From: Catajapyx aquilonaris
Lineage: Eukaryota
DNA length: 41,578 bases
Direction: 5' to 3'
Assembly: GCA_000934665.2 (NCBI GenBank)
Contig: KZ538196.1
Coordinates: forward strand, 62,001-103,578
The notes below the pieces were generated by a model. That model did not search any database, had not been told where the DNA came from, and saw only the letters and a list, made by a program, of their open reading frames with translations. The translations under genes and the position numbers were made by a program. Below, piece after piece: positions 161 to 20,643 of the stretch (its first letter is position 1; the number at the start of each line of letters is the position of its first letter).

Positions 161-257
161 TCCGGAAGTAAACCTGTTTGTTAGTCATTGGATTTTCTGG
201 TTGATCATACCTTTTGTTTGTGGTGGGTCGTTAGTAATTTATTAATTGTAATTGCAG

Positions 258-3200
258 GCTCGCCCATAGACCCAACCAGACCTTACCTGGAGATGCTGGA
301 TGAGCCGCAAGAGAAGTTTAGGTTCAGGTACAGGTCTGAAATGACCGGTACTCATGGCTGCCTCTTAGCGGACGGATCGGAGAAGGACAGGAAAAAATAC
401 CCGACTGTTCGAGTAAGTAGAGTTGACTTCTATAAATTTTATGACTGTTTCATGAACATGCGAAGTCATTTTCACGTAATTTTGATGATCAGTTAACATG
501 GGATGCCGTACCATCTAATTATCCGGCCTTGTTCTGAGGTTCGTTAACACAATGTTATGATTTTTGCAGCTGAACAACTACAGAGGGAACGCTTGCGTCC
601 GTGTCACCCTCTGCACTGCTGAGGGCCACCTTCATCCGCATCAACTGGAGCAGAAACCGGTCACCGACAAGGATGGAAACCCTGTCGATTGCCCCATAGA
701 AATGGTGGTTAATGAGTCTAACGACTATACTGCCATCTTCCAAGGCATGTGCGTGATACATACGCCTCGTAAAAGACAGATGAAGGACGAGTTCGAAGCC
801 AAGTTGAGGCAGTATCGGCTAGAGAGGAAGCAGTGGAATGCACCGGGATCTCCACAAGCAAAGCTGACCCTTCAAGAGACGGATGAAGTTCACCAGGACG
901 CAGACAAAATCATAAAAGAGGCTGATGTAAACAACAGGGTCCACCTAATGTTTGAAGCCTTTTCAGACGAGAGTGGCAGCCGTGTTTCGCTGTGCAAGCC
1001 ACTCTTTTCTAGAGCTGTATTCAACCTGAGTACGTATTTTTTGGAGGTCACGGATAATTAAAATCGTGGTTATTAGGCCATTCTCACAGATTGATAAATT
1101 GCTGTTGCTGGCATTACATGGCTATTTGTTGCCTGTCACTTCACTTGTAACGAAATGTATGTTGTAAAAGTATTGAGGTCACTTTTTTCTCTCTTCGCAT
1201 ATGAAGGAAAGACGCACTTGGATGCATACTTATGCAACGGTTTTCCCCGATTTTTATTAGGAAAGAGTCGATACTCTGATTCACCTGCTGTAGCTTCCAC
1301 AGCTTGTGACTAATTTACGCTTATTTTTCAGAGAGCGTGCAGACTTCCGAGCTCAAGATTGTCTACCTGAGTAGAACAACCGGGAAATGTACTGGAGACG
1401 ATGAGATTTGCATACTGGTAGAAAAAGTTAACAAAAGTAAGTTGAATTTTGAGCGTCTCCAGCAGTACCAGTTCACTTCATGTTGCCGTTGTTTGACGTG
1501 TCTCTTTGCTTTTTTTTTTTGTAGAAGACATAAAGGTGAGATTCTTCGAGGAAGAGAACGGAGAGGAAGTCTGGCAGGCGGAAGGGAATTTCACGCAGTT
1601 GGGCGTACACCACCAGTACGCCATAGTCTTCAGGTATGCACTTTTAAGTTTACAACCACAGATAATTCGCTGCAAAACCTTTTGTAAATTAACTTTTGGT
1701 GTTTGGCATTTTTACGAGGTTGTAACAATAGTTCAAAACTTGTTGTTTGCGGATGCAAAAGTTGAACAAGCTTTTGGTTTTGTAGGACACCGCCATACCA
1801 TGACAGAAATCTGACGGTGGAAAAGGCCGTGTTGATGCAGTTGTATCGGCCGAGTGACAAGGCTACCAGTGAAGGGAAGGAGTTTAGGTACCTGCCTGGA
1901 GACCGTAAGTACTTCATGAAGAGTAGAAGCGTAAGTCATGAGTAAGAAGGCATGTCATCAAGTCAGCTTCAAGCGAGCATGTGTAAGAGAGCGTACAAAT
2001 AAGGATGTTTTTTTATTCGTAATTAATTTATTACAGTAGAAATTATGTCACTGTTGAATCTCATTTGTAGAGAGTTTATATGCATTTTAGATACACGCTG
2101 CATTTTCATTTTTTGCATATTATATTTGTAATTCATTTTTACAATAATGATGTTTGTGATACCATGCATGGTATTAACAATTGAGTCGTTTATTTGGCCA
2201 ATACATAATCGCAGTGTTATAGTCCGTAAGTTACACAAGGAAATTACTGTTTCTTACAGCGTACGTACGTTAATACCTGTTTAAGCATTTTATGAGATAA
2301 GCATTTAATACAAAAGGCTTGTTATTATTTAAAGTGCAACAAGACAAATATTTAAAGCTTGTTATAAAATAGAAAAGTAGCATCTAGGAGCTGCAGAGAA
2401 ATATTGAAGTGTACAAAAAATATGTGTATTCATAATATTGAAGCTTGGTTTTATTATGATTTAAAAAATAAATAAAATGTGATAGGTTAAGTAATAAACT
2501 GTCTTTAGTAAACTGGGAAAGGTGTATTTCATCATTTTTGATCGAGCAGTTTTGAAAAGGTTGAAATCGCTGTGATGTGAAATGTGAAAATAAGTAGTCA
2601 TGAAGACGCAGGACCACAGGAGGTGACATCTCACACTCGTCTGAACAGCAGAATAAATGTAACTTACTGTCGCTGGAAGTATGTCATGAAGTCATGAAAT
2701 ATTTTTTCCTGATCCCAACCCAAACATGAATCTACAGCTATTACGCTCCCGATATGAAACGAGGAAGCTGTAAAATAAATAATACAGTTTTTACTTTCTT
2801 AGTACAAGTAACTAATACGCAGCGAATTGCGAGTAACTAAATAAAATTGCATATGAGAACTAAACTTGAGATTGTCTTGTCATTAGCCGATAATAATGCC
2901 TCATCGCACAATACACATTTCAGAGAAAAGTAACAACAGTTAACCAAATTGTAGTTGTACCATATATTTTTTCCAATTATTTTGTGGATAATATCAGTTA
3001 CTCTGCAGGCATTACTGGGATGTATGCTGGGTTAGCAATTTAGCATTTGTCAATATCAGGAAGAACTTGACACATCTCGATAATTTATCTAAATAATTGC
3101 AATAAGAAATGGTGACGATGAAACCTGTCAGAGACTGCAAAAAAAAAAAAAACAAGCCGAGGCCCAGCTGGATATCAGCAGATTGTTACTTCCGAGTGCG

Positions 3201-6200
3201 AATAGGATACGTAATCTTCCCATTGCTGTCATCCAGGATGAATGAGGAAAGGATTATTAATAAAAATAATTTATGTTGTACATTGGAGATGATGCACACT
3301 TTTCAGCTGCATTTCACAGTGACGAGCTGTATTTATCGATGAAATAAAATTTGCTGTATGACGTCTTCTGTACCACCACTTTACTCTTCCTGCTCCCCAA
3401 AAATTACAAGTAGTTGAACCTGTTTATTTTACTTTTAATAAGACAAACATGAAAGAATATGCGGTGCAACATTTAATGAGAATATGAATAAGGATAAGCA
3501 CGTTCAACTGCACACTATTCACTAATAGAATTACAAGTGATGGAAAACCTTTCCCAGAGGAAATAGTTTTAATTAGTCAATCGTAATGTAGTGCTAATAA
3601 CTGCGAGACTAATGAGTAATCGTAAGAGAGATTGGTATGCAAACTAGTTGCAAGCCAATGATCGAATTCCCATGAGGTGACTCGCACTAAGGAAGTTTCG
3701 TAATCGACCTGTCTTCAGAATGAACATAGCATCTCTCGAAAATAATTGGGATAAATTAAGGATCATGCTCGCAAGCTCCACTTATGCTCATGCTGACTGT
3801 TGTTGTCTATATGGGAAAGTTAATTTTTGTCTCTTGCTCCAGCTCCACGCAAACGTCCGCATTTGGCAAAAGGACAGTGCCAGCCTCGTGATAGCGACCT
3901 ACCACCGCCCAAGATTGTTAAGCAAGGCTTGTCCATACCAGGGCCTTCTCCAGTGACCACCTTCATTTCCACCGGACCAGCCGTGCCTCCTGCCCCAATA
4001 ACTTCTTCGTTCAGCGAAACCAGTGCTCCACCAGCAGGTAGGAGAAAAGTGTTGCGGATCAAACGGAAGGTTAAACAGGAATCTTCGGAGAGGGATTCAG
4101 TCGTGCCTCCAGTGGTCATAGTGCCGTACCAAGGGGTCAAACATGAGAACGCGTCACAGGGGGAAAGGAACACGGACCAGCCAATCACCAACGGGATGAT
4201 CAGCTTAGTTATAGTCTCTGGAGGAATGCCCTGTGATAGGTGAAAATTGTGCTGGCTCAAAACATGCGTACAGGGTGACAGTTTTTATCGTTTCAAAAAG
4301 GGTGGTATTCCACACATTACGCTTGCAGAGAGATGGACACATCCTGGATTTAATTGTTCAAGCTTCAGAAGTTTTACTAAACTAAAAAGTGCAGGCAATT
4401 TACTTAAATGCATAGGGCAGCTTAATGTATGGAGACCAACCTAAATCGAGAGGTCCTTTTGGCTGTTCATTGCTGGCCATTTATGTTACGCAAGAGACGG
4501 AAGGAAATTTTTTAAGGAACTGGATGCACAATAGGTCCGTTATTTTACACATTGTCCACTTTTTATAAGTGTGTGACTAATTGTCGGATAAGACTGAGCT
4601 GCTAACTTCCTTTGGAAAAAAAAAAATGCAATTAAAAAGATGCAAGCGGTTGATTTGATTACGTTGTGTTTGATGGGAGTTGAAATGTTTTTACTTCCAG
4701 TAAAATTTTAATGCACATAGTTCGTGTGTGTCTTTATTAATTGCAATATTTTGCTAACAAAAAAATGGCAAACCTGCGGAAAAGATGCTGCTCACCCTGC
4801 GCATGAAGAAGTGGACCAATACGATTCAAGTGGCCTTATTTCAGCACAGTTGAAGTTGTGTGCCACACTTGGCATAATTGCTCGTTTTTTTTAAAATTAT
4901 TTTGTAAAGGAATGATTTAAGAACATTGGAAAATAATGCTTATTTGTCAGTGATATAAATTATTTTTCTTTCTGTACTCAGGGGGAATAATAATTTTTAT
5001 GAAGTTGAGCAGTTTACGCAAGTAACCATTCGCTTGCATGTACGAAAATATTGTACAGGAGACGTGGTTATCTTTTTTGCGACTGAGCTGCGGCTTAGAT
5101 TGTCACAGTGAAATTGTGTGTATGCATTGTTACAAATGATGCCAATAGTTAGACAAGCAAAATTTTTGAAATAGATTTTAAGAAAAATTTGTTCCAAAGT
5201 CATCCAGATCTGATTTTAATTTCCTTCTTTCAGGCCAAAATAATAATAAAAAATTTGATTAGTTTATACCAATCGTGTTTGTTCAGATATTGCAAATGAA
5301 AAAAATGTGTGAACTATTGTGAAGTTCATATGTTAATATTTTTTTCTCAATATATATTTTTTTTTCTGTAGACATTTATGTAATGAAGTGATTGGAAAAA
5401 TAAACTCTGTTTGTTATATATACATCATGTCATTTTTATTATTCTATTTTTTTTCTCTTATTTCTATATGCAGCACACAATTTCCTTGACAATTGTAGGG
5501 GGGGCTTCTTATTCACTGTTTTTTTTTGTTCAATTTGAAAATATCCGTCTACATTTCAGCTTTATTATTTTTATTACCTGAATGCAAATAGTTTCTTCCT
5601 TTCAATCTTGCCTCACGGACGTACCTAAATTATTGACGTGGAATTGAAAATATAATTTTGCTCTAAAATTGAGCAGACTATTGTTGTAACGTCGTTTGCA
5701 AATTTGAGTACACTCAAAATAATTGTGTATTTGAAATAATCGAAAACATTCAGGTCATAACTTTTTGATGATGTCCTCTGAACATGTTCGTCCCATTTGG
5801 ACCTGTGATAGTTTTTTAAAAAGTAGTTCGCTGCCATGTAAAATTAGCATGACCACCTTCGATGTGTCGAATTGAGTTGCAGCTGGCGACACTTTTGCTT
5901 ATAACGTCACTCAATATTATAATTGCAGGTCCCAATACTATGCTAGGCCAGCCGATGGATTTTAACTTGGGAATGCTTGCTGGGACTCTTCCTAACTTGG
6001 ATCCAGGCACGGCCCAGCCATTTCAGTGGACGAGGGATCCAAACGTTGGAAATTCGCCCACCCACTTTCAGTTCATGAAGGAGACCTATCCGACCATAGA
6101 CTTTAGTGAACTGTGTCAAAATACACCAATTCAGTACCAGTCACAGTACCAGGTCCCGCAGCAACAGCAGCCGGAAGACCAACATTTGTCCATTGACGAT

Positions 6201-8635
6201 ATTGATCCATCCATCAACCCATGTGAGTGTTAACTTATTTTAGATGATGTCCTTTTACAAAAAGTTTCATAACGGACACAAAGGTTTATTCAAAGAGAAT
6301 TTACTGTACGAGCTGTTTTTACATTTAAAATAATTTGAGTGAATCTGTATTCAACCTTATCGTACAATGCAGTCATGAAATTTTTGTGTAGAACAGTGGC
6401 ATACTGATGTTTGATATGTGTTGCTGCTCAGAATATTCTCATTACACATGTTACGCAGTTCCAGAATATGGCACCATGCTGAATGAGATGAGCAGCCCTC
6501 AGTACTTACAAATTGATGCGGCCACAGGCGGCACGAAGAAGAAGACAAAGTCCAAAAAGCCTCCTCAAGATGATGGTAAGTCAGCATTAAACGAAACTCA
6601 TTCGTGATTCACTTGCACGTACATTGATTTTTACAGACCAGGTACTGAGCCGTGGAGACGATCTGGGTAACATGATGGGACGACTGACAATAGGTGATGG
6701 TAATGGAAATGCCAGTGTGCCTGATGGCCGCGACTTGGCCATGTCAGTGGCTAAGAGTATCGCCGAGTCTCTTCAGGCATGGGCTGCCTCAAATGACATT
6801 GCTGTGGTCTGGAGGAGGCTTAGGCACTTATTCGCATTGCAAACTGAAGAGGGAGAGAAGTACGGCTGTTTGTGATGAACATTAATAAAAACATTACTAA
6901 TATTAATTGCTTGTAATTTCTAGCGCACTGCATACGGCCGTTCTTTACCAGCAAGAGGGACCTCTGATGGATATTCTGAGAGTCCTTCGCCAGTATCACG
7001 ACCAGGAGTCCATTAACGCTGTGAACATTCACGACCAGACGCCATTGCATCTGGCAGTGAAAGGGAACCAGGCCAAGATGGTAAAGGAGCTTTTGGAGGC
7101 AGGCGCAAACCCAGGGATAGTGGACGAGAATGGAAACACCGCCTTTCATGTGGCAGTCAGAATGAACCACAGCCAGTGTCTGGACGAGTTGCTCAAGAAG
7201 AAGAGCTACACAAATGGGAAGATCACTCAGCCGCAGATCATAAATCTGACCAATCATGATCGTAAGTTGACATTGAAGTGTTTTCTTGGTAATAATTAAT
7301 GGAAATTTTTTGGTGATCTCAATTTGTTTTTAAAGTGTGCGATTATGATATGTTTAGTGATGTTATCTTAAATTCGCAGCTGGATCAAGCCCTTTGCACA
7401 TGGCAGTACGCAATGGAAAGCTGGACCTAGTTCACAAGCTGTCCAGTGCGGGTGCGAATGCGGATGAACCTGATCGTTCACAAGGGAATACTTCTCTGCA
7501 CATTGCTGTCGAGAAGGAAAATGAAGACATGGTTAACTATCTGCTTGAAAGGGTATGCGAACAACTTACATTGCTAGCAGTCCCAGAAAATTTAATTATA
7601 CGGGTGTTCATGAAACATAAGAATTAATTGTCTGAAAGTTATGCAGGGCAGAGGAATATTGCTGGAAAAAAGGGACAGCTCTTTTTTGTGATAAGTGATG
7701 ATCGCTGTTACATTTGATGCTTCTGTTTCCAGACCAAGGCTAAGATCAATGCCCAGAACTACAGCGGAAACACTCCACTGCATGTAGCATGCGACTTGAA
7801 AAACAAGGGGCTCTGTTTGCTTCTAATGTCATATGGGGCCGATCCTAACATGGAGAATTACATAAAGAGAAACGACGAGTCTGAGGAAGAAGAAGACAAA
7901 GAGACAGACAACAACGTCAAATGCCACACAGCGTTTGACATTGCTGGCGATGATGAAACAGTAGGTTGCAATATTAATTTGCATATTGTGTTTGCCAATC
8001 AACATGTTAACAGTTATTGTGACATTTTTCAGCTTCTTAGGATTCTAAGAGGAGAGATCAGACTGGAGAAAGAAGCTGCTGCTGAAGCACAAGAGATTGC
8101 ATGCGAAGCTTCAAGTAAATCTGAGCCTCAAGGGTTGGATTCAGGGATAGACATCCAAAGCCGAGAGATGCTTTCGCAGAGTGAGTTTCTTCCACGTTAT
8201 CAATATTTTAGTTATTAGTCGCCCCCGTTTATTTAGGCGTGGACATTCTGGACAGCACTATTCGCCAAGAGATTGCAAAAATACTGGACAGGTCGCCAAA
8301 GTTGTGGAGAGAACTGGCACATGCACTGGAATTGGGCTTCCTCATGCATTTTATCGAGACCCAAAGCAGTCCTGCGACATGTATTTTGAACAATTTGGAT
8401 GTAAGCTACTGTTCATAATTTTTTTTTTTTTGATAACATTGTACACTCATTCCATCTTTAGCAATAACTGCATAAAGCGATACATAAGTTCTGTTGCAAT
8501 AATGATGAATATAATAATTCATTGTTTTATTTATTACAGGTCAATGGTGTCAGCTTGGACAAACTAATAAGCGCCTTGGAAGAGCTGAACGTCACGGAAG
8601 CTGTTGACATCATCAACAATGCATTTACACATTGA
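258..8635 (+). CDS. Rel: Relish / NF-kB p105-p110-like transcription factor (5' exons outside the window)
   Basis: Phase-consistent GT-AG exons: 258-412, 570-1029, 1332-1436, 1525-1633, 1786-1904, 3843-4037, 5929-6222, 6459-6575, 6637-6859, 6924-7261, 7380-7552, 7733-7960, 8033-8180, 8237-8400, 8540-8635 (TGA); about 974 aa in the window. RHD has the Relish-type EKFRFRYRSEM..THGCL (Ser in place of the Dorsal/RelA Cys). IPT motifs VHHQYAIVFRTPPY and LYRPSD are followed by the NLS RKRP and LQID. Ankyrins: ENALHTAV, QTPLHLAV, NTAFHVAV, SSPLHMAV, NTSLHIAV, NTPLHVAC. Death domain: WRELAHALEL...SPATCILN...LISALEEL. Confidence 0.96.
3843..4243 (+). CDS. Rel: Putative alternative terminal exon of a short, ankyrin-less Relish isoform
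   Basis: The NLS exon stays in frame for 206 nt past the CAG|GTAGGA donor at 4037/4038, to TGA at 4241-4243. The extension looks coding-like compared with the AT-rich intron that follows. No transcript evidence. Confidence 0.55.
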
Positions 8636-10124
8636 CGTTACATTTTTATGATATGTTATACTGGCCTTGATAACAACACTTTCATGCCTTTAGCAGCACT
8701 GAATAATACAGGCTGATGTACAGTTAAACTTTTAAAGCCTGTTGCAAACTTAATACCTTTTAAGAATAGCAGCGTAATTTATAACCTCGCACAATCAAAA
8801 TGCAGATGGCATAGTCTTCATTACAATTTTAAATTATTGTTAAGTGTTCTAATTTACTGCGGAGCAATTCATGCATACATGCAAATGAAACTGGTGTTAT
8901 TTTCAACCGTTAAAGAGAATACCTTGTATTAATATAGGGTTTGACTCCTGGAATTATGGTGCTATGTGGTACCAGTACTACTGAATAATAGTTTGTTAAG
9001 TAATATTTTTACAGCTTGGTAAACCCGTACTATTGATGTTGGAAAAATTGGGGGAAGAAATATTTCGATGCTAAAGGATTTTAAATCCTCGATCCATTTT
9101 CCATGAAAGATGTCCCATTTTGCATTTTTGTAAGCTAGAAATAGCAATAATACTGGGGTTGTTCTTTTGAAATATCGTTTCAAAAATATTCTCTCTCAAA
9201 AAAATACATAATACATATATATATTTTATATGTTGATTGATGTATTGTTGGGGATGAAATGTGTGGAAGGAACTTCAAGTGGTGATATTGCTCATATTTT
9301 GCATATTGGAAGACTTGTGAGGGAAGAATTGTTATGCGTTTTAAATATGCCTTTTATGTCATTTCTCTCAACATGATTTATTCAAATGCTGGCCTTAGAA
9401 TTTTAGTACTAAATGTCAATTACTTGCGGAAAGTGGGGGGGAATATACTTTTATGCAGGTAAAATATGAGAGTAATCCCACAATATAATATTTTTTGACA
9501 TTGCTATTTTGTACTCCCATTTTATGTGAATGCGAATGGATCCTGGGGAAGTACAAATCATTACTTACCCTTATTACAAGTGGTTGAATAAATTTGAAGA
9601 AAATTATGTATGCTTTGTTCAGTTTCATATTGTCCATATGGATTGCCACTCAAGACAATTCAGGTAACGAGAAGAGTCGGACGGACATGATCACTTTACA
9701 TGCAGCGTGGAGCACTCATTCTTTTAAGTAAACAGCGCATTAAATATTATCAGAGAACCACGATTACAATAATAAGCCGATTCCATCCTGAAAAATTCAA
9801 TGACTTATTGTGCTGCCGTAAACAGGATGAAAAATTGAGCGCAGTTGCATCACACTGATTGAATAACTTGTTGGCACGTCGCAGCTCATCCTTCCTTCCT
9901 TGTTATTATTCCTAACGAACCGCAATTAGGCAACTCATAGTCACACCCCCATGAAACCGGTCGCTGGTGTCCGCTTTACCCTAATCTCACAACAGACGGT
10001 CTATGCATATTTATTAATTTTTAAATATTATGTATACTTTTACGTTAACGATGGACCAGGAGTACAGTCTGTTACGAAATGTCTGTTGAATCATTTACTT
10101 ACTGGATTTGCTATATACTTGTCA

Positions 10125-10200
<76 letters not shown>
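10125..10200. repeat. (CAT)25 microsatellite
   Basis: Perfect trinucleotide run; explains the poly-His and poly-Ile ORFs. Confidence 0.97.
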
Positions 10201-10214
10201 TTTGTGAAATTATT

Positions 10215-10654
10215 GCGATTAAATTATAAATATAAAAGGGTAAGTTTGTTGGTATGTCCCCACTGCCCCATCACTCTCCCACAGCAACGGGGTGTCCATG
10301 ACAACCGGGTCACCACAGCAACGGGGTGTCCATGGCAACCGGATCACCACAGCAACGGGGTGTCCATGGCAACCGGGTCACCACAGCAACGGGGTGTCAA
10401 TGGCAACCGGGTCACCATAGCAACGGGGTGTCCATGGCAACCGGGTCACCATAGCAACATCTCCCATCGCGATTAAATTATAAATATAAAAGGGTAAGTT
10501 TGTTGGTATGTCCCCACTGCCCCATCACTCTCCCATAGCAACGGGGTGTCCATGACAACCGGATCACCACAGCAACGGGGTGTCAATGGCAACTGGGTCA
10601 CCACAGCAACGGGGTGTCCATGGCAACCGGGTCACCATAGCAACATCTCCCATT
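10215..10654. repeat. Tandem duplication (254-bp and ~186-bp copies) containing a 34-bp minisatellite made of two 17-bp subunits
   Basis: gcgattaaattataaatataaaagggtaagtttgttggtatgtcccc starts at 10215 and again at 10469. The inner unit ggggtgtccatggcaaccgggtcaccayagcaac occurs 5x in copy 1 and 3x in copy 2. Confidence 0.95.
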
Positions 10655-11292: not shown

Positions 11293-14200
11293 ATGGCAAT
11301 ACGCAATCCGGACGTCAAGTACACCAAGGTTAGTTAAGAGTGTACCACATTATTATTATTAGTTAAAAAAAGAAAGAGAGCCTGATATTATATCCAGTTG
11401 AAAACCTCCAACCCTGTAGCTGGTATGAATATTTAGCATGGAATTTATTAATGGAGGGGGTGGAAGCTGATGGGTCGATATTTGAAGGGAAACTCCACGT
11501 GAAAATGGACACGGAGGTTGGATCAAGTGAATGCATAATCAAAATAACGTTTTTTGGTGTGTGTACTGTACTTGCTGAAATTGACTGCTGTTAGCCAGTG
11601 TAGGCCTATGTGTCAGAAGACTTATCATTATGTGGTTATTGCGTGTTCGATTATTATAGTTCTTGGGGGGTGACTGTCTTATTCAAGGGCATCTTTGTTT
11701 AAATAGATGCAGGGCAAGTTTTGACCCCATTGGAAACCTGTATTGGGTAGAGGTAGAGGCATATACTATGTACAGGGTGTCTGAAGCTGAAGAAATCCGA
11801 AATATATTTCGAAAATTTCCTGTCAATTGGAGTGAGATTGTGCCAGTGCATTTTTGGGACAACAGTGCGCCCTTCACAGAATTTTACTCGTTATTTCCAA
11901 CCTTGACCATCCCTTAATGAAGTAAACCATGCTGCCACTAGGGCGCACTGTTGTCCCCCAAAAAATGCGCTGGCACAATCTCACCCCACCTGGCACAATC
12001 TCACCCCAATTGACTGTATGTGTTTATTGAAATGGGACAAAATCTCTAATATTATAAAAGGCAAATAATCAGATTTAGTTGTACCATCTCTACTATTATA
12101 AAAGGCAAAGTTTGTCCATATATTTAGTTGACATACCAACCCAGTACCAACCTAATAAAATAATAATGTGAATTATTTGTCCAATAATTTCTGATGATTG
12201 GTGTGACTATCTTTTTTTTCTCCAGCTGTTCATCAACAATGAATTTGTGGACTCCGCTAGTGGGAAGACTTTCCCTTCGATAAACCCGTGCACTGGAGAG
12301 ACGATTGTGAACGTGGCAGAAGGTGATAAGGTGAGAAGAAAACGAACAGACCTTGAGAGTACAGCTGGCAAAAAAAAAAAGAAGAGAAGAGTAATTGCGT
12401 AACCGTAAAGGTGGTGCTTAGTGATGATATCATCACAATCATAATCACTTATCGGTCGCAGCACTTAAAACCAGCAGAAGCAAAGTGTCTTATGATACCC
12501 AACGATTAGAAATGTCTTTCAGATGATCGTTATAATCATGTAGGTTTGATTCTTTGATTGAATTAGCTGGCTTAGCAACTGTTGCTAACTTTAGTAGCAG
12601 CTACTGCGGTCCTACGAAAGAAGACCGTAACTGCTCATTGTAGTCAGGTGGGCACAGCTAACTTTCGATAACAGCTAACTTGCTCAGAAAAACCATGGAC
12701 ATCACCAAATCGTTAATGCTTAACAGCTAGAAAGGTTAGTGGAAACCCCCCTAATCATTCTAGCTGTTTATCATTAGCAATTTAGCGCCGCCCATGGTTT
12801 ACTACCCGAATTAGCTGTTAGCGGAAGTTAGTTGAGCTAAAAATTTCGGTTAGCGTGCCCAGCTCTGATTGTAGTTACGGCTTTCTTTCGTAGGACTTCA
12901 ATACTAATAAGTGACACCCGTTGTTTAAGTATAGCAGCTGCTACTAACTTTTAGTAGGACGAATTATAACCCTGTACTAAATGTACATAACAGGCTGATG
13001 TGGACAGGGCAGTAAAGGCAGCCAGAGAAGCGTTCAAGTTCGGATCAACATGGCGGACGACCGATGCCTCCGCCAGAGGACGTCTCATCAACAAGGTAAC
13101 TGACCCCCGACCACCAGTTGGGGGCCGATGACCTCTAATCCGTCATTTTGAATCCAGCTTGCAGATCTGATCGAGCGAGATCAGGTCTACTTGTCCAGCC
13201 TGGAGACTCTGGACAACGGGAAGCCTTACGAGGAAGCTGTTTTCGACATGGAGGTGGCAGTGTCCACCTTCAGATACTATGCTGGCTGGTGCGACAAGAT
13301 ACACGGAAAGACCATTCCTACAGACGGAAACCACTTCACATTCACCAGAGAGGAACCGGTCGGAGTCGTGGGACAAATCATCCCTTGGAACTACCCAGTT
13401 CTGATGGCATCCTGGAAATGGGGTCCAGCACTGGCAGCTGGATGTACCATTGTGCTGAAGCCGGCTGAACAGACGCCTCTGAGCGCCCTGTACATAGCTG
13501 CCCTCACTAAAGAGGTCAGTGAGGTCAAGGGATTAGACTCAAAAAGTGTAGGTTTCAGACTTTTTTCTTAATCAGAGGCACGTAAGCCATCAGTTTCAGC
13601 ATTTTCAGTAGTCCGGAAGTTGGTAAGGTAGCCCTGACATACAAACATGCAGAGAAGCTTTCCCATTTATACCGTAAGAGTTGACTAACTGTGTTTTTTT
13701 TCAGGCAGGGTTTCCTCCTGGTGTGGTCAACGTGGTCAATGGTTATGGACCCACAGCAGGAGCAGCCATTTCTTCCCATCCTGACATAGACAAAGTGGCA
13801 TTCACTGGTTCTACTGAGATTGGTCATCTGATCATGGAGGCTGCGGCCAAGAGCAATCTGAAACGGATCTCCTTAGAACTGGGAGGAAAGAGTCCTCTGG
13901 TTGTGTTCTCGGATGCTGATAGTGAGTTTCATGGTCTTCTGATCTATTGAGTTGATGCTAATTGCTGGTCTATTTAATAGTTGACGAAGCTGTGCAGATT
14001 GGATACAACGCCATATTTCCTAACCAAGGACAGTGTTGCTGCGCAGGAACGCGAACTTTTGTTCAGGAGGAGATATACGATCAGTATGTGGCAAAGGCTA
14101 AGAAGATGGCTCTTGAACGCAAAGTTGGAGATCCGTTTAACACTGATGTCCAGCAAGGACCACAGGTCAGCATTGTTGTCAAACAGTCCGATATACAAAC

Positions 14201-14907
14201 CCATATAAACCCTTAATTTTTATTTTCGCAAAAATGAACAGATTGATCAGGATCAGTTTGATAAGATAATGGAGTTGATCGAGAGTGGTAAGAAGGAAGG
14301 GGCTAAGCTGGAGTGTGGTGGAAACAGGATTGGAAACAAAGGATATTTCGTGCAGCCAACTGTCTTCTCTAATGTTCAGGATGACATGCGGATTGCCAAA
14401 GAGGAGGTGAGGAAGTTTATCGAGATGACGGTGATGAATAATTCATATACTGTTGTGCAACACTCTTTGCGTAATCATTGAACTTGCAGATATTTGGTCC
14501 GGTTCAGCAGATCATCAAGTTCAAGACTATGGATGAGGTGATTGAACGGGCTAATAAGACTCATTACGGTTTGGCTGCAGGTATTGTCACTAAGGATATC
14601 AACAAAGCTCTGATGTTCTCTCAGGCTGTGCAGGCTGGATCTGTTTGGTATGCATAATGCTGTTTATGTGCAAATATGGAGCATAATTATTTGGAATATA
14701 TTTTCAGGGTGAACTGCTATGATGCCACGACTCCTCAGACGCCATTCGGTGGATTCAAGCAATCAGGACAAGGAAGAGAACTGTAAGTACACATTACCTG
14801 CTATTGTTGCAAGTACAACAATTGATTGTTTCAGTGGCGAAGACTCCCTGAAGGGATACCTGGAAGTGAAGACTGTGACTATCCAGGTGCCTCAGAAGAA
14901 TTCCTAA
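11293..14907 (+). CDS. Aldh: Aldehyde dehydrogenase, ALDH1/2 family, paralog A (490 aa, no mitochondrial presequence)
   Basis: Exons 11293-11328, 12226-12330, 12994-13095, 13158-13514, 13705-13921, 13981-14165, 14242-14406, 14490-14647, 14708-14782, 14835-14907. Motifs: [35 protein letters not shown] (catalytic Glu), NQGQCCCAG (catalytic Cys), [16 protein letters not shown]-terminus PQKNS. The symbol is family-level only. Confidence 0.96.
11822..12014. mobile_element. MITE-like foldback element in ALDH-A intron 1
   Basis: The ~50-bp arm gtcaattggagtgagattgtgccagtgcatttttgggacaacagtgcgccct is reverse-complemented at 11940-12014, with a local ~20-bp duplication in the right arm. Confidence 0.8.
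12043..12131 (+). repeat. 44-bp tandem duplication resembling Helitron 5' termini
   Basis: a|tctctaatattataaaaggcaaa at 12043 and a|tctctactattataaaaggcaaagtttgt at 12087. The TC start after an A and the TATTATAAA run resemble non-autonomous insect Helitron 5' ends; no 3' CTRR/hairpin identified. Confidence 0.5.
12645..12867. mobile_element. hAT-type MITE with a perfect 8-bp TSD, nested in an older hairpin element (12609-12896)
   Basis: TSD attgtagt at 12637-12644 and 12868-12875. Termini caggtgggcacagctaac / gttagcgtgcccagctctg. Outer arms gtcctacgaaagaagaccgtaact / agttacggctttctttcgtaggac. Confidence 0.85.
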
Positions 14908-15017
14908 ATCAACCAGGATCCACCTTTTTTTTGTAATCATTCATTAATGATTGGATCGTATAATGAGTTTCCGATACATTTTTCATAACCACAGGAAGTT
15001 TGTAATCGTGCATAATC

Positions 15018-15023
15018 AATAAA
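15018..15023 (+). terminator. Poly(A) signal of ALDH-A
   Basis: AATAAA about 110 nt after the stop codon. Confidence 0.65.
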
Positions 15024-16265
15024 CGTGACTTGAGCATTAAACTGGAGGATGTGTATACATTTTTAATTACTGGTGTAATAACATTAGGGTGTTTTTCATA
15101 AAATCCAAGGGCAGTTGCCCAATAAATTATTAAAACATGGGTATTATATAATAATTAAGTAAATGAGAAAGTGCTGCCCTTCATTACAGATTTTATGGCG
15201 ACTTAAAGGACTTATGCATGAGTGGTGTGTATCATGTCACGAATTAACTAAATAAGTGCAAGTTGACCAAATATTTAACTAAACTTACATATAAATAATT
15301 GCAACTATCATCTAAAATATTCGGTCATGTATATATCGCTTAAAAAGATGGTGACGATTTTGTATTTGGATTAAGTGCAAAATCGTTTCTCATTTTTTGA
15401 GCGATATTGTATACCTGTAGGTATGTGATCTTTATTTTTTTGAAGAGTTTGTTACATTGTTACATTGCAGCGATTAATTATCTGATGGTGCAATTTCTGC
15501 ATTTTATCATAAATTATGTTCAATTACACTGCCATACTTAGTAGGCTATTAAAATACGAGTTTAAAGACATAAAATGAGTGTTGACAGTGCCACAAATTA
15601 TTTCCAAAATTTTAACAGCCATTTCCAATACTTCCAATCAAGGATTTGTGTCAACTGCACCATTTATTTAAATATAATAATATTGCGGGTTTGTGCTTCC
15701 GAACCTGACACGTGTCATAGGACACGATGACATGTCGTCTGAAAGCAAAGTAAACCAGACGGCTATAAATTGCAAATGTAGGTCGCATATAATTTTCATG
15801 CTGTTTTCGACAGTTACAATGCAAGCTGCATACATTACCCATTATTCCATAGCCAGACATGTAGTGTACTGTGTACAAAGTCTATAAATAACGTTGTTAT
15901 TGCACATACCTTCACAAAATGTGAAATAACACCCATATGACATTTTCCTTCAAAAAGATTGCCCTCCAGACATCAGATAGACATTCAAATAGTCTATTCA
16001 ACTTGTGTCCTCACAGTACAAGGGTCGTATATCTTGAAAAGGAAGATCTTCTCACAGGGTCACTGCAGGGGGGTACAAAAAAAAGTAGTCATGTGACCTT
16101 CCAAGGGGCTGAGTTCCCCACTGCAGCCCCCCCCCCCTCCCCTATCAGCTTCCTTTTAAAACGAAGCAACCTTGGGAAGTCCTGACACTTTGGTCCTGGG
16201 TATCGCAGCCGCCACATCTGCGTGGTGCAAGTTCAGGGTAAGCTTAGATTTGTACTGTACCGTGT

Positions 16266-16427
16266 CGTACTGGTAGCGCCACGAGCCGAAAGCACTGAAG
16301 CAAAAAGAGCGAATCGTTTGCCCTCCGAATGACCACCTTCATTTGATCATAAATGAAGGTGGTCATCCAGATGGCAACTTTCGATTCGCTCTTTTGGCGG
16401 CCAACGGCTCATGGCGCCACAAGTACG
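16266..16427. mobile_element. Foldback/MITE-like hairpin upstream of the ALDH-B ATG
   Basis: Perfect 16-bp arms atgaccaccttcattt (16329-16344) and aaatgaaggtggtcat (16351-16366) with a 6-nt loop. Pairing continues outwards: aaaagagcgaatcg / cgattcgctctttt and gcgccacgagccg / cggctcatggcgc. Confidence 0.75.
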
Positions 16428-16510
16428 CCACATTAATGTCCATGTACTGTACAGTATGAAAATAATGTGGCCATATTGCAGAGTCACACCGAGTCAACAC
16501 GTTTGCAACA

Positions 16511-19239
16511 ATGGCACCGGCAGTCAAGTACACCAAGGTACGTACCCGGCGCACTTAGTTATACCGGCAATGGTGAATTAATATTATTGCTGTATTGTTG
16601 CAGTTGTTCATCAACAATGAGTTCGTAGATTCCAAGAGTGGGAAGAAGTTCCCGACGTTCAATCCATCCAATGGCGAGAAGATTGTCGACGTTGCAGAGG
16701 GCGATAAGGTTGGTGCAATTTTTGTGAAGAGTAGATAGGTCAGTTTACTTACATAATGAGTGTAGTAATTTAATCTGCTGATTTGATAAGGTCAAGGTGA
16801 CCTGTCTCAGACTGAGTCACGGTCAGTCGTGTAATGCGAGCATGTCCCAACCCCTTAGCCTATATCTTGGCCACATTTTATTTTGCATGAACAATAGGCT
16901 TCATTATCGCAATGGGTACCTCTTTTTAGAAGCTTGTTGCTATGTAGAAACCGGATACATTACTCCAGATTACCATGTAAAAAATAGTCTGTAATGTAAT
17001 ACCTGGATTTATGTGACAGGCTGATGTGGACAAAGCTGTGGAGGCTGCTTCCAAGGCCTTCCAGTTGGGCTCCCAATGGCGCACAATGGACGCTTCTGCA
17101 CGTGGAAGGCTCATCAACAAGGCAAGTCTTAAGCACCATTGTTGCAGCCCTCATTTTTATATTAAAACTAGCAAAGAAATATTGAAGAATGAATATTAAT
17201 GAATGGTAACCCGGTTGCTGTAGAGGGAAATGGGACATACCGACAGACTTTCCCTTATATAATTATATTTATTTAAATTATCCAGTTGGCCGACCTGATC
17301 GAGCGTGACATGAAGTATCTGGCCGAGTTGGAGACTCTGGACAATGGGAAGCCTCTGACATTGTCCATGATGGATATCCAGTTCTCCATAAACACACTGA
17401 GATACTATGCCGGATGGTGCGATAAGATCCATGGAAAGACCATCCCTGTTGGTGGGTAAGCCAGCACAAACTGTGGATATCCCCCATTTGACCAATCATG
17501 TTTTCAGATGGCAACTTCTTCTCCTTCACTCGTATGGAGCCTGTGGGTGTTGTGGGCCAGATCATCCCATGGAACTACCCAATTCTGATGGTGACCTGGA
17601 AGCTGGCTCCAGCACTGACCACCGGATGCACATTGGTCATGAAGCCTGCAGAGCAGACTCCTCTGACCGCCCTTCACATCGCTGCTCTAACCAAGGAGGT
17701 ACGACACTCGTTAAGTTAACAATCGTGCAATATTTTCAACCCGGCTTTATTTAACAGGCTGGTTTCCCTGATGGTGTGGTCAACATGATCCCCGGTTATG
17801 GACCAACTGCTGGAGCAGCTATTGCCAACCACGAGAAGGTGGACAAGGTGGCCTTCACTGGATCCACCGAGGTCAGTAGGTCTCCTAATAGGCTTATTCT
17901 CTCCGTCGAATGGGCCAGCAATGTGAGGGATATGGTACTACGTGGACGGGGTTAACCACTGTTGTTGTTTCAGGTGGGCAAGATAATCCAGCAGACTGCT
18001 GGAAAGTCTAATCTGAAGCGTGTGTCTCTGGAGCTTGGAGGCAAGAGTCCTCTGGTTGTCTTTGAGGATGCAGACTGTAAGTACCGCCATTTTGTTTGGC
18101 TGCCATTTTGTTGACTGCCGCCATTTTTCTAGTGGATGTGGCTGCCAACGTGTGCCACGAAGCTGTGTTCGTGAACCAGGGTCAGTGCTGCTGTGCCGGA
18201 TCACGAACCTTCGTTCAGGAGGGGATCTACGACAAGTTTGTCCAGAAGGCCAAGGATCTGGCTGAGAAGAGGAAGGTCGGTGACCCCTTCCAGAACGGAA
18301 TCCAGCAGGGCCCACAGGTACGCAACAGTTACCATGACTTGAGTACACATATCTGAAGGTCCCCTCAAATTTTCTCAGATTGATGACGAGCAGTTCAAGA
18401 AGGTGATGGGTCTGATCCAATCTGGCAAGGATGATGGTGCCAAGCTGGTGTGTGGTGGTAAGCGCCATGGAGACAAGGGCTTCTTCGTGGAGCCAACAGT
18501 GTTCGCCGATGTCCAGGACGGTATGACCATTGCCAAGGAGGAGATCTTCGGGCCTGTCCAGCAGATAATCAAGTTCAAGACCATGGAGGAGGTCATCCAG
18601 CGTTCAAACAACACCCAGTATGGCCTGGCTGCCGGAATCATGACCAAGGACATAGACAAGGCACTCACTTTCGCACAGGCAGTTCAGGCCGGATCCGTCT
18701 GGTAAGTTACCTGCTAGTTTAACCATGGTTAAAATTTAACCAGAGATTCTTTGTAGGATCAACACCTACCTGGCTATGGGGCCTCAGACTCCATTTGGAG
18801 GATTCAAGCAGTCTGGACACGGACGTGAAATGTGAGTATCAGTTCGTCCGCTCTGAGTCATCAGCTAGGTTCATGTACCCTGAAAGTGGCATTAGTGATA
18901 TCTCTGAGGGGTATGGTACTATGTGGACAGTTTTGACTATCGTTGTCAGTATAAACACTTTCAGAAAGTGACGTGACGTATATGATAACGTTTCATAACT
19001 TACCAATCAGAGGCACGATCAGTGGGATACTCGAAGGTCATTGGGCAGAAGGATTGCTTTATGAAATGTTATTATACGTCACCTCCCTTTCTGAAAGTGG
19101 TTATATGTAGCGCTATATTGAAGAGCTATAGGCATCATGATGTGACCCAACTTTTTCTGCCATCAGGGGAGAGGAGAGCTTGAAGGAGTACTTGGAGGTG
19201 AAGACCGTGACCATCGGTGTCCCTCAGAAGAACTCCTAA
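16511..19239 (+). CDS. Aldh: Aldehyde dehydrogenase, ALDH1/2 family, paralog B (487 aa, no mitochondrial presequence)
   Basis: Exons 16511-16537, 16604-16708, 17020-17121 (GC donor), 17286-17451, 17508-17698, 17758-17871, 17974-18076, 18133-18317, 18379-18701, 18757-18831, 19167-19239. The same catalytic motifs are intact ([30 protein letters not shown]). The symbol is family-level only. Confidence 0.96.
18950..19105. mobile_element. MITE in the last ALDH-B intron, TA-flanked
   Basis: Termini tataaacactttcagaaa / tttctgaaagtggttata, plus inner arms gtgacgtata..ataacgtttcataa / ttatgaaatgttattatacgtcac. Confidence 0.8.
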
Positions 19240-19352
19240 ACTGTCTGGCTCTTAATGGTGTGACCTCTACATACATTATTGGCACAATTGAAAACCTTGC
19301 TGTACGACCAGGTGGAACAATGTGACATTACTGTAACCCAGGAAAAGACGCG

Positions 19353-19358
19353 AATAAA
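19353..19358 (+). terminator. Poly(A) signal of ALDH-B
   Basis: AATAAA about 114 nt after the stop codon. Confidence 0.65.
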
Positions 19359-20643
19359 ATAATGCAACTCGAATATCTGGTTTGTGTAATGGTTACAAGT
19401 TTTGGGGGTTGATAGAATAATGACAGCCAGTATATAATTATGATTGTTTTCAGGTGTTAGGCTTCGCAGCAGAAGAGAGTGGAAAATTCTGATCGTCAGC
19501 TTCATTGTTATTTGTATTGTTGATTTTCCTCGTCTCCGTATTCTTTATATACCCTTGCACCCTGGGCCCATAAGTAATTTGATGTGCATGATGCTATTTG
19601 TAACTCTTGTCAAATTAATTGGCATTATCAGAACAATGGGTGGTTCTGGAGTTACTGATAATAACATGAAAACTGAGTTATCCTAACCAGCTGATTGTAA
19701 CATTGTTGGTAAGGGCGCCTGGAAAAATAATGTTACATGAAGGCACTGCAATAATTATTTTAAGGCAAGATGTGGAACAAATCACGTGATGATTGCAACT
19801 AACCCAACCTAACTTACCTATGCTGAGATAAATGGTTTTAAAGAGACCCAAGTTGTGTTGCTAATTTCCTTGATCCCGTTTCATTCTACATGGCATCGGG
19901 CAATTTTTGCAGACACTCTCCAGGCGGTATTGGTCGAGCCCAATGTTTTATCTTGTGGGGCCGGTTTGCCCCGGGGCTGAATTTGCCCCGGTAGCTGTGT
20001 GTCTGGTCCACATCTCTGCTGGAGGCATACTTCTTCTACTGCCACACCTACCCTCAGGGGCACCAGAGTACAGGGTGTTCCCAAAGGGCCCGTGCGAGTC
20101 TGTCTTTTATGAGAATGATGACAAAACTAGTGCTTTTGGTTTCTCATTGGGATGACGGAACGACAGCGGAATTAAATGTGTACAGCCGAGCGATTCATAT
20201 AATTCAGATCAGATCGCGGACACTGCAATACCAGCACATGTGACCGCGTATATGACACTGATAATATTGCAAGCCCAAATTTTGCGTCAAAAGTCTGCAT
20301 ATTTTTGTCGACACTCTAAGCATACTGACATCAATTTAAAATATGCCGTCAGTAGATACAACTGGTTCATGTAGCATTGCATTTGAAATGAAATTGCAAT
20401 TGACCAGGAATTCACACTCTTTAAGTTCATGTGTGGACTCCACAAACACCCGGTGCACACATGTCATTGAGGTCTTGCATGTCTAAATATTAACTAATGT
20501 AGTGTTTATCAATTAACCTAATTAACTAAAACACACTATAATGGAACCAACTCCAATCATACCACATCGAGTGTTGCCTTCAGGTAGCCGGGTAAGCCTA
20601 CATCAAGTGCGAAGTACAGCTAAATAACACAATATATACTTAA

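Follow-up and report, generated by a model that had tools for sequence, protein, structure and literature searches.

Spliced and read-through RNA at the exon 6 donor of a Catajapyx aquilonaris Relish gene, and the ankyrin-less isoform predicted from them

Does the Relish gene of Catajapyx aquilonaris give rise, besides its full-length product, to a short protein that is born without the ankyrin repeats? The question is raised by a window of 41,578 nucleotides (assembly GCA_000934665.2, contig KZ538196.1, positions 62,001 to 103,578 of the forward strand; positions below are those of the window unless another stretch is named). A sequence-only reading of this window had noticed that the frame of one Relish exon stays open past a splice donor and had proposed a hidden isoform with a private tail. 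The role of short Relish forms is unsettled, and 68 private residues that can be separately detected, silenced and mutated would provide a cleaner test of it. Such an isoform is one that automated annotation is likely to miss.

A complete Relish-type gene

Fifteen exons of one Relish-type gene, all on the plus strand, occupy the initial 8.6 kb of the window and join to an open frame of 974 codons. The coding sequence begins in an exon upstream of these (L002 6531-6651), which extends the full-length protein to 1014 amino acids; this exon is Ser-rich, is common to both Relish forms, and its 3' end coincides with the loose 5' end of an RNA contig. Window exons 1-5 (258-412, 570-1029, 1332-1436, 1525-1633 and 1786-1904) encode the Rel DNA-binding and dimerisation domains found in both forms, as revealed by RNA joints and by Pfam, in which PF00554 exceeded the cut-off in two exons and PF16179 in one, with a weak match in another. 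Exon 6 (3843-4037), also common to both forms, is joined in RNA to exon 5 (1904->3843) and has a counterpart exon in a paralogue described below. It starts after CCAG and carries the basic motif RKRP at 3848-3859 together with a Pro/Ser-rich linker, in agreement with the coordinates given by the sequence-only reading.

The remaining exons belong only to the long form. Exon 7 (5929-6222), likewise supported by RNA joints, encodes a Gln-rich, acidic and hydrophobic stretch (14 Q and 11 D+E in 97 amino acids) that may serve as an activation region. Exons 9-15 (6637-8635), joined in RNA, encode the ankyrin repeats and a death-like domain, the IkB half of the protein. Ank families exceeded the Pfam cut-off in the exons at 6925-7260 and 7733-7960; the Death domain matched in one exon only, with an E value of 0.0014 and 19.2 bits, below the cut-off of 22.6. 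In the gene model, exon 8 (6459-6575) contains the sequence LQID at 6506-6517, which, by its presumed likeness to the caspase site of Drosophila Relish, is a candidate cleavage site. Drosophila Relish itself is described as being cleaved after D545 (PMC8376203). The best PDB matches are p100/p52/p50, all weak (E 0.001-0.015). The Relish-type DNA motif KFRFRYRSE, which resembles the RFRFRYKS reported for Tenebrio Relish (PMC7060202), is present, as is the RKRP basic signal after the dimer domain. With its Rel domain, RKRP signal and ankyrins, the gene is a complete Relish-type gene.

Two RNA paths at the exon 6 donor

The RNA data consist of assembled contigs, not raw reads, from one run (X1) of one study and are unstranded. 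Laid on positions 250-8950, X1 yielded eight contigs; 14 contig pieces are unlisted, and their extents were deduced from the joints and depth bins. All 14 modelled introns appear in X1 contigs as GT..AG joints, including 4037->5929 (joined at 4033->5925, which a shift of the cut by +4 brings to GT..AG), and X1 is therefore RNA-derived. The donor CAG|GTAGGA (4035-4043) is in phase 1 and matches the phase-1 acceptor at 5929, as had been proposed. Its description as an internal donor needs amending, in that 4037 is no cryptic site: spliced in RNA and recurring at the same place and in the same phase in the paralogue, it is the ordinary donor of the intron, and the alternative event is the failure to use it.

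That failure is seen in a separate X1 contig, which is unspliced and gap-free over 4010-5167 and includes the whole tail, its stop codon and 0.9 kb beyond. RNA beyond 4037, without which the sequence-only reading was to be given up, is thus present over all of 4038-4243. To the left of the donor the contig has 28 bases, fewer than the 31 required by the rule for a bridge. The first base to distinguish the spliced from the read-through path comes 30 bases after position 4010, and a model in which the exon 6 contig ends at 4039 and both of its successors start at 4010 reproduces 17 of the 18 depth bins examined. We take k to be 31 for these assemblies, in which case an overlap of 30 bases is expected at a branch of the assembly graph. 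From this branch geometry, not from a single long read, we infer that both the spliced and the unspliced path leave exon 6 and that the tail is linked to the upstream exons. The depths of the contigs were 26.5 for the read-through, 9.1 for the spliced path 4037->5929, 21.3 for exon 6, 5.9 for a read-through into intron 5 and 23 for the ankyrin part, values that cannot rank isoforms.

The intron 5 contig (1875-2723) is a second read-through, in which the frame closes after 13 codons; intronic RNA is therefore not unique to donor 4037. A protein made from it would end 13 codons past the dimer domain and before RKRP, at the position where the Dorsal B forms lose their nuclear signal, and the RNA may be pre-mRNA. 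Intron 5 contains seven AATAAA and a small contig piece, at 3160-3450 with a mean bin depth of 1.32, that is unexplained by the contig model. A depth step was observed further downstream, where the contig of the ankyrin half starts at 6656 with a depth of 23 (6656-8950) and the contig of exons 7-8 has a depth of 9.1. The step could reflect 3' bias or an assembly break or, conceivably, an IkB-only transcript as cited for Aedes.

The stretch 4244-5167, covered unspliced by the one contig, would be the short form's 3' untranslated region (GC 0.36, four ATTTA). Two AATAAA, at 5245-5250 and 5399-5404, lie at the places where the sequence-only reading had put them and are candidate poly(A) signals of the short form. 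From the end of the read-through contig at 5167 it is 78 nt to the AATAAA at 5245, and the main 3' contig appears to stop near 9480, 107 nt before the AATAAA at 9587; contig ends are not RNA ends, and of 1685 places in this intron, 162 would put an arbitrary end 30-110 nt ahead of an AATAAA. Positions 5197-5778 are without a contig, and up to 5924 the bin model requires none; such a gap would be more in keeping with a last exon than with retention of the full intron, with the proviso that contigs cannot show RNA ends. A strong acceptor-like site at 5233 (5205-5263) precedes the AATAAA region; joined from 4037, it would give an alternative last exon of nine residues, GQNNNKKFD, before a stop. 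Among the X1 contigs no joint uses it.

The private tail and the Relish-like paralogue

Read past the donor, the frame stays open up to a TGA at 4241-4243 and so provides the 206-nt extension that had been claimed, with 68 residues and a stop (4038-4243). The tail reads GRRKVLRIKRKVKQE...VVIV...VKHE...LVIVS...CDR and contains, in addition to the basic stretch RRKVLRIKRK, the motifs VKQE (4070-4081), VVIV (4112-4123), VKHE (4136-4147) and LVIV (4205-4216), all of which had been noted before. The chance that 67 codons stay open is 0.010 with intron composition and 0.023 in base shuffles. The GC content of the tail is 0.51; in introns 5 and 6, none of 323 windows exceeds 0.41, and the remainder of its own intron has 0.33. 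By codon position the tail has GC values of 0.52/0.40/0.61 versus 0.55/0.38/0.55 in the exons of the gene, and this likeness to exons in GC content and codon-position pattern ends close to the stop codon. Its codon score of 0.341 falls within the range of the 15 exons (0.08-0.51, leave-one-out), and the score is at most 0.118 in 461 intron windows. Since 10.7% of base shuffles reach 0.341, the codon signal is mostly GC content. Four of the 14 donors, including 4037, can be read on for at least 60 codons; the other three belong to introns of 72-152 nt, and two of these three read-throughs continue into the next exon. To judge from its sequence, the extension looks coding-like, with a frame open beyond chance. 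In a DNA search, positions 3800-4300 matched only themselves, with no sign of a repeat origin within the limits of that tool.

The predicted short form is an ankyrin-less Relish of 489 amino acids, the first 422 of which it has in common with the long form. It keeps the Rel DNA-binding and dimer domains and RKRP and, in the gene model, loses exon 5929-6222 and, with the candidate cleavage linker, the whole set of ankyrins, which is the domain loss that the sequence-only reading had foreseen. Its tail is net basic (12 K+R, 7 D+E) and contains a second basic cluster with 8 K/R in 12 residues (shuffle P 0.0009). The SUMO consensus is psi-K-x-E. Two such sites occur in the 68 residues (residue-shuffle P 0.001-0.003, for a motif chosen post hoc), in contrast to one in the 974 amino acids of the long form. 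Of the motifs behind the description of the tail as rich in SUMO motifs, these two sites are unusual, and the SIM-like cores VVIV and LVIV are weak, being near chance (P 0.05-0.07, also post hoc). The candidate SUMO lysines of the short form are K434 in VKQE and K456 in VKHE, and a SUMO-like gene in two exons lies elsewhere in the genome (G000:C158). SUMO attachment at K434 and K456 would be a plausible addition.

Searches for relatives of the tail gave little. With exon 6 plus the tail as query, none of 15 candidates proved to be a homologue, there was no match among 1.84 billion representatives and no usable match in the Atlas, and a search of the animal's own genome returned only the query itself and exon 6 of the paralogue (E 0.13). 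Exon 2 as query gave no accepted candidate out of 92, and exon 1 gave two out of four, both short. The only locus from 128 stretches of a metagenome scan was a Dorsal/RelA-like sequence that has no introns and was of no help for comparison.

The paralogue is a second Relish-like gene on the minus strand of G000:C1392, at about 14060-17570 (L012 6062-9570). Its frame is intact, its exon phases are the same, and it has a stop in exon 8. No ankyrin match was found in the 26 kb examined, nor among the 72 matches from the best 150 of 641 candidates; the sequence points to an ankyrin-less Relish at the level of the gene. Exon 7 is kept in it, with 39% identity over 64 query residues. A donor is found at the same place and in the same phase as 4037, followed by an intron of 71 nt, and read-through there meets a stop after 21 codons, so that the tail is absent. 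Only the first five residues of the two read-throughs are alike (GKRKI versus GRRKV), a likeness forced in part by the donor sequence. The paralogue has the donor and not the tail, which makes the donor old; the tail either arose after the duplication or was lost in the paralogue.

Short Relish forms and the choice at the donor

Short ankyrin-less Relish forms are known in mosquitoes, moths and shrimp. The sequence-only reading had invoked those of mosquitoes and some crustaceans, a precedent that PMC12459809 and PMC7060202 bear out, the latter citing the forms of Aedes and shrimp. Rel2-S of Anopheles gambiae is described as a short transcript that has neither ankyrin nor death domains, with 130 unique 3' nucleotides, 46 of them coding; it had been credited with anti-malarial defence, and in the same paper the protein was undetected and silencing of Rel2-S had no effect on bacterial clearance (PMC12459809). 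The Catajapyx RNA would likewise be an ankyrin-less Relish transcript with a partly coding 3' end of its own, but the coding part private to it is 204 nt (68 amino acids), has two SUMO consensus sites besides a basic cluster, and is followed by about 0.9 kb more of contig. In Manduca, Rel2A and Rel2B (397 and 442 amino acids) lack ankyrins and, at full length and alone, activate promoters and reporters and do not repress them; the Rel domain of Rel2 suppresses promoters only together with that of Dorsal, and Relish2 of Bombyx is cited as dominant-negative (PMC4742911). Compared by description, MsRel2A/B and BmRelish2 are ankyrin-less forms that differ only at the C-terminus and are close in size to the Catajapyx form (397 and 442 versus 489 amino acids); unlike it, their available descriptions mention no SUMO-motif tail. 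Gene models of ankyrin-less Relish are also reported in chelicerates (PMC4833078).

A likeness in RNA mechanism is offered by Drosophila, in which Dorsal B, Dif B and a short Cactus arise by intron retention and alternative polyadenylation (PMC4500392). At these genes a donor goes unused, the reading frame continues within the intron and the RNA ends at another poly(A) site, as would be the case at Catajapyx Relish. The Drosophila B forms lose the nuclear signal and, in that account, were not seen in nuclei (PMC4500392), whereas in the Catajapyx short form RKRP would be retained and a basic cluster added. The genome has a candidate of the Dorsal B type of its own: in a Dorsal-like gene on the minus strand of G000:C2004, at about 18850-20131 (L015 4854-6131), the frame of the last dimer-domain exon remains open for about 400 codons beyond CAG|GTAGG, a site similar to donor 4037. 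Its layout suggests a Dorsal B-type isoform, and BLASTP found no alignment between this read-through and the Relish tail.

With respect to SUMO, Drosophila Relish has a site at K823 near its C-terminus, the modification of which restrains cleavage and is dampening (PMC8376203); SUMO control has been reported for Dorsal as well (PMC9252280). The Catajapyx sites would similarly be candidates for the damping of an insect NF-kB factor, but they are confined to the short form, where they would act upon a protein already free of its inhibitor. No SUMO-motif tail on a short Relish was described in the passages surveyed, in which the Bombyx, Aedes and shrimp forms appear as citations. The Catajapyx read-through is a short Relish isoform of a known kind, supported by RNA through contig 4010-5167 beside 4037->5929, with a private tail that is longer and richer in motifs than the mosquito example.

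From the structure of the gene, the two RNA paths observed at the donor and the coding-like tail, the following mechanism can be proposed. Donor 4037 would compete with an intronic poly(A) site. Splicing to 5929 would yield full-length Relish (1014 amino acids), which needs caspase cleavage to shed its ankyrins; with the donor skipped, exon 6 would become the last exon, be read on for 68 more codons to the stop ending at 4243, and the short mRNA would probably end at a poly(A) site near 5245. Relish-S, as the short product may be called, would consist of the DNA-binding and dimer domains, RKRP and the second basic cluster, without exon 7, the cleavage linker and the inhibitor. Since no cleavage is needed and two basic clusters are present, it should be nuclear. 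There it could sit at kB sites independently of any signal, activate weakly and thereby damp or buffer cleaved Relish, an effect of the kind reported for Bombyx Relish2; a damping role is the likelier one because the basic tail replaces the acidic, Gln-rich exon that the paralogue conserves. SUMO could deepen the damping, in analogy to its effect on Drosophila Relish (PMC8376203), and if the sites work, a cleavage-independent brake would be added to the IMD pathway. A choice between two mRNAs at 4037, with a short Relish that is mainly damping, is in our view the best explanation, with a probability of about 0.5. Taken singly, a mature short mRNA probably exists, the protein is rather likely to be made, and its mainly damping action can be put forward only tentatively.

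An elaborated version, in which the short form is abundant and the tail is a SUMO switch equipped with two lysines as acceptors, a pair of SUMO-binding cores and a nuclear signal of its own, the choice between splicing and poly(A) addition setting the ratio of nuclear repressor to cleavable activator, is improbable. If it were true, this animal would have, with the paralogue, three routes to an inhibitor-free Relish: cleavage, an intronic 3' end and gene duplication.

Other explanations of the same RNA deserve weight. The read-through RNA could be real but unproductive, premature intronic termination or slowly spliced pre-mRNA lowering the amount of full-length Relish while no protein accumulates and the tail motifs are incidental. 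Such a course is in keeping with the Anopheles Rel2-S mRNA, for which neither detectable protein nor a phenotype is reported (PMC12459809), with the intron 5 contig and its mere 13 open codons, and with the failure of homologue searches and of the paralogue to reveal conservation of the tail. It is rendered rather unlikely, though a serious contender, by the likeness of the tail to exons in GC and codon-position pattern, ending close to the stop and unlike anything in the 323 windows of the two long introns, by the chance openness of the frame of 0.01-0.02, and by the fact that no contig covering a short intron is among the pieces listed, 14 pieces being unlisted. Alternatively, the short form could be translated and act as a constitutive or tissue-specific activator that maintains basal antimicrobial-gene expression without IMD signalling. 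The ankyrin-less full-length Manduca Rel2A and Rel2B activated antimicrobial promoters, as described in PMC4742911, and the Catajapyx form keeps the DNA-binding, dimer and basic motifs along with the Ser-rich first exon. Its lack of exon 7, the conserved acidic, Gln-rich exon in which an activation region may reside, and the net basic charge of its tail (12 K+R against 7 D+E) make an activator unlikely.

The extension could also be part of an internal exon, spliced on in phase 2 from AG|GTGAAA at 4239/4240 to an acceptor such as that at 6924, also of phase 2, to give an uncleavable Relish that keeps its ankyrins. The site resembles a donor, shares bases with the stop codon and is in phase with exon 10. 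The contig, however, passes 4240 without a gap up to 5167, and none of the 14 listed joints starts at 4239/4240, bearing in mind that contigs drop rare variants; onward splicing is thus highly improbable.

Several observations concern the surroundings of the gene. Matches to a kB consensus, eight in number, lie at five places within 10 kb (L002 5617-9051), both in the region upstream of the gene and in its first intron; they overlap and fall on both strands, and shuffled sequences gave a mean of 0.77 and a maximum of 4. The matches suggest autoregulation of Relish. Downstream on the plus strand, exons at 12170-14480 belong to what we take, by eye, to be an aldehyde-dehydrogenase-like gene. Searches for odorant receptors and odorant-binding proteins each gave a single weak match, from 15 and 3 candidates respectively. 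Tandem arrays are formed by a 28-bp unit in the first intron (3-115), by (CAT)25 at 10125-10200 and by a 34-bp unit in two blocks at 10279-10644.
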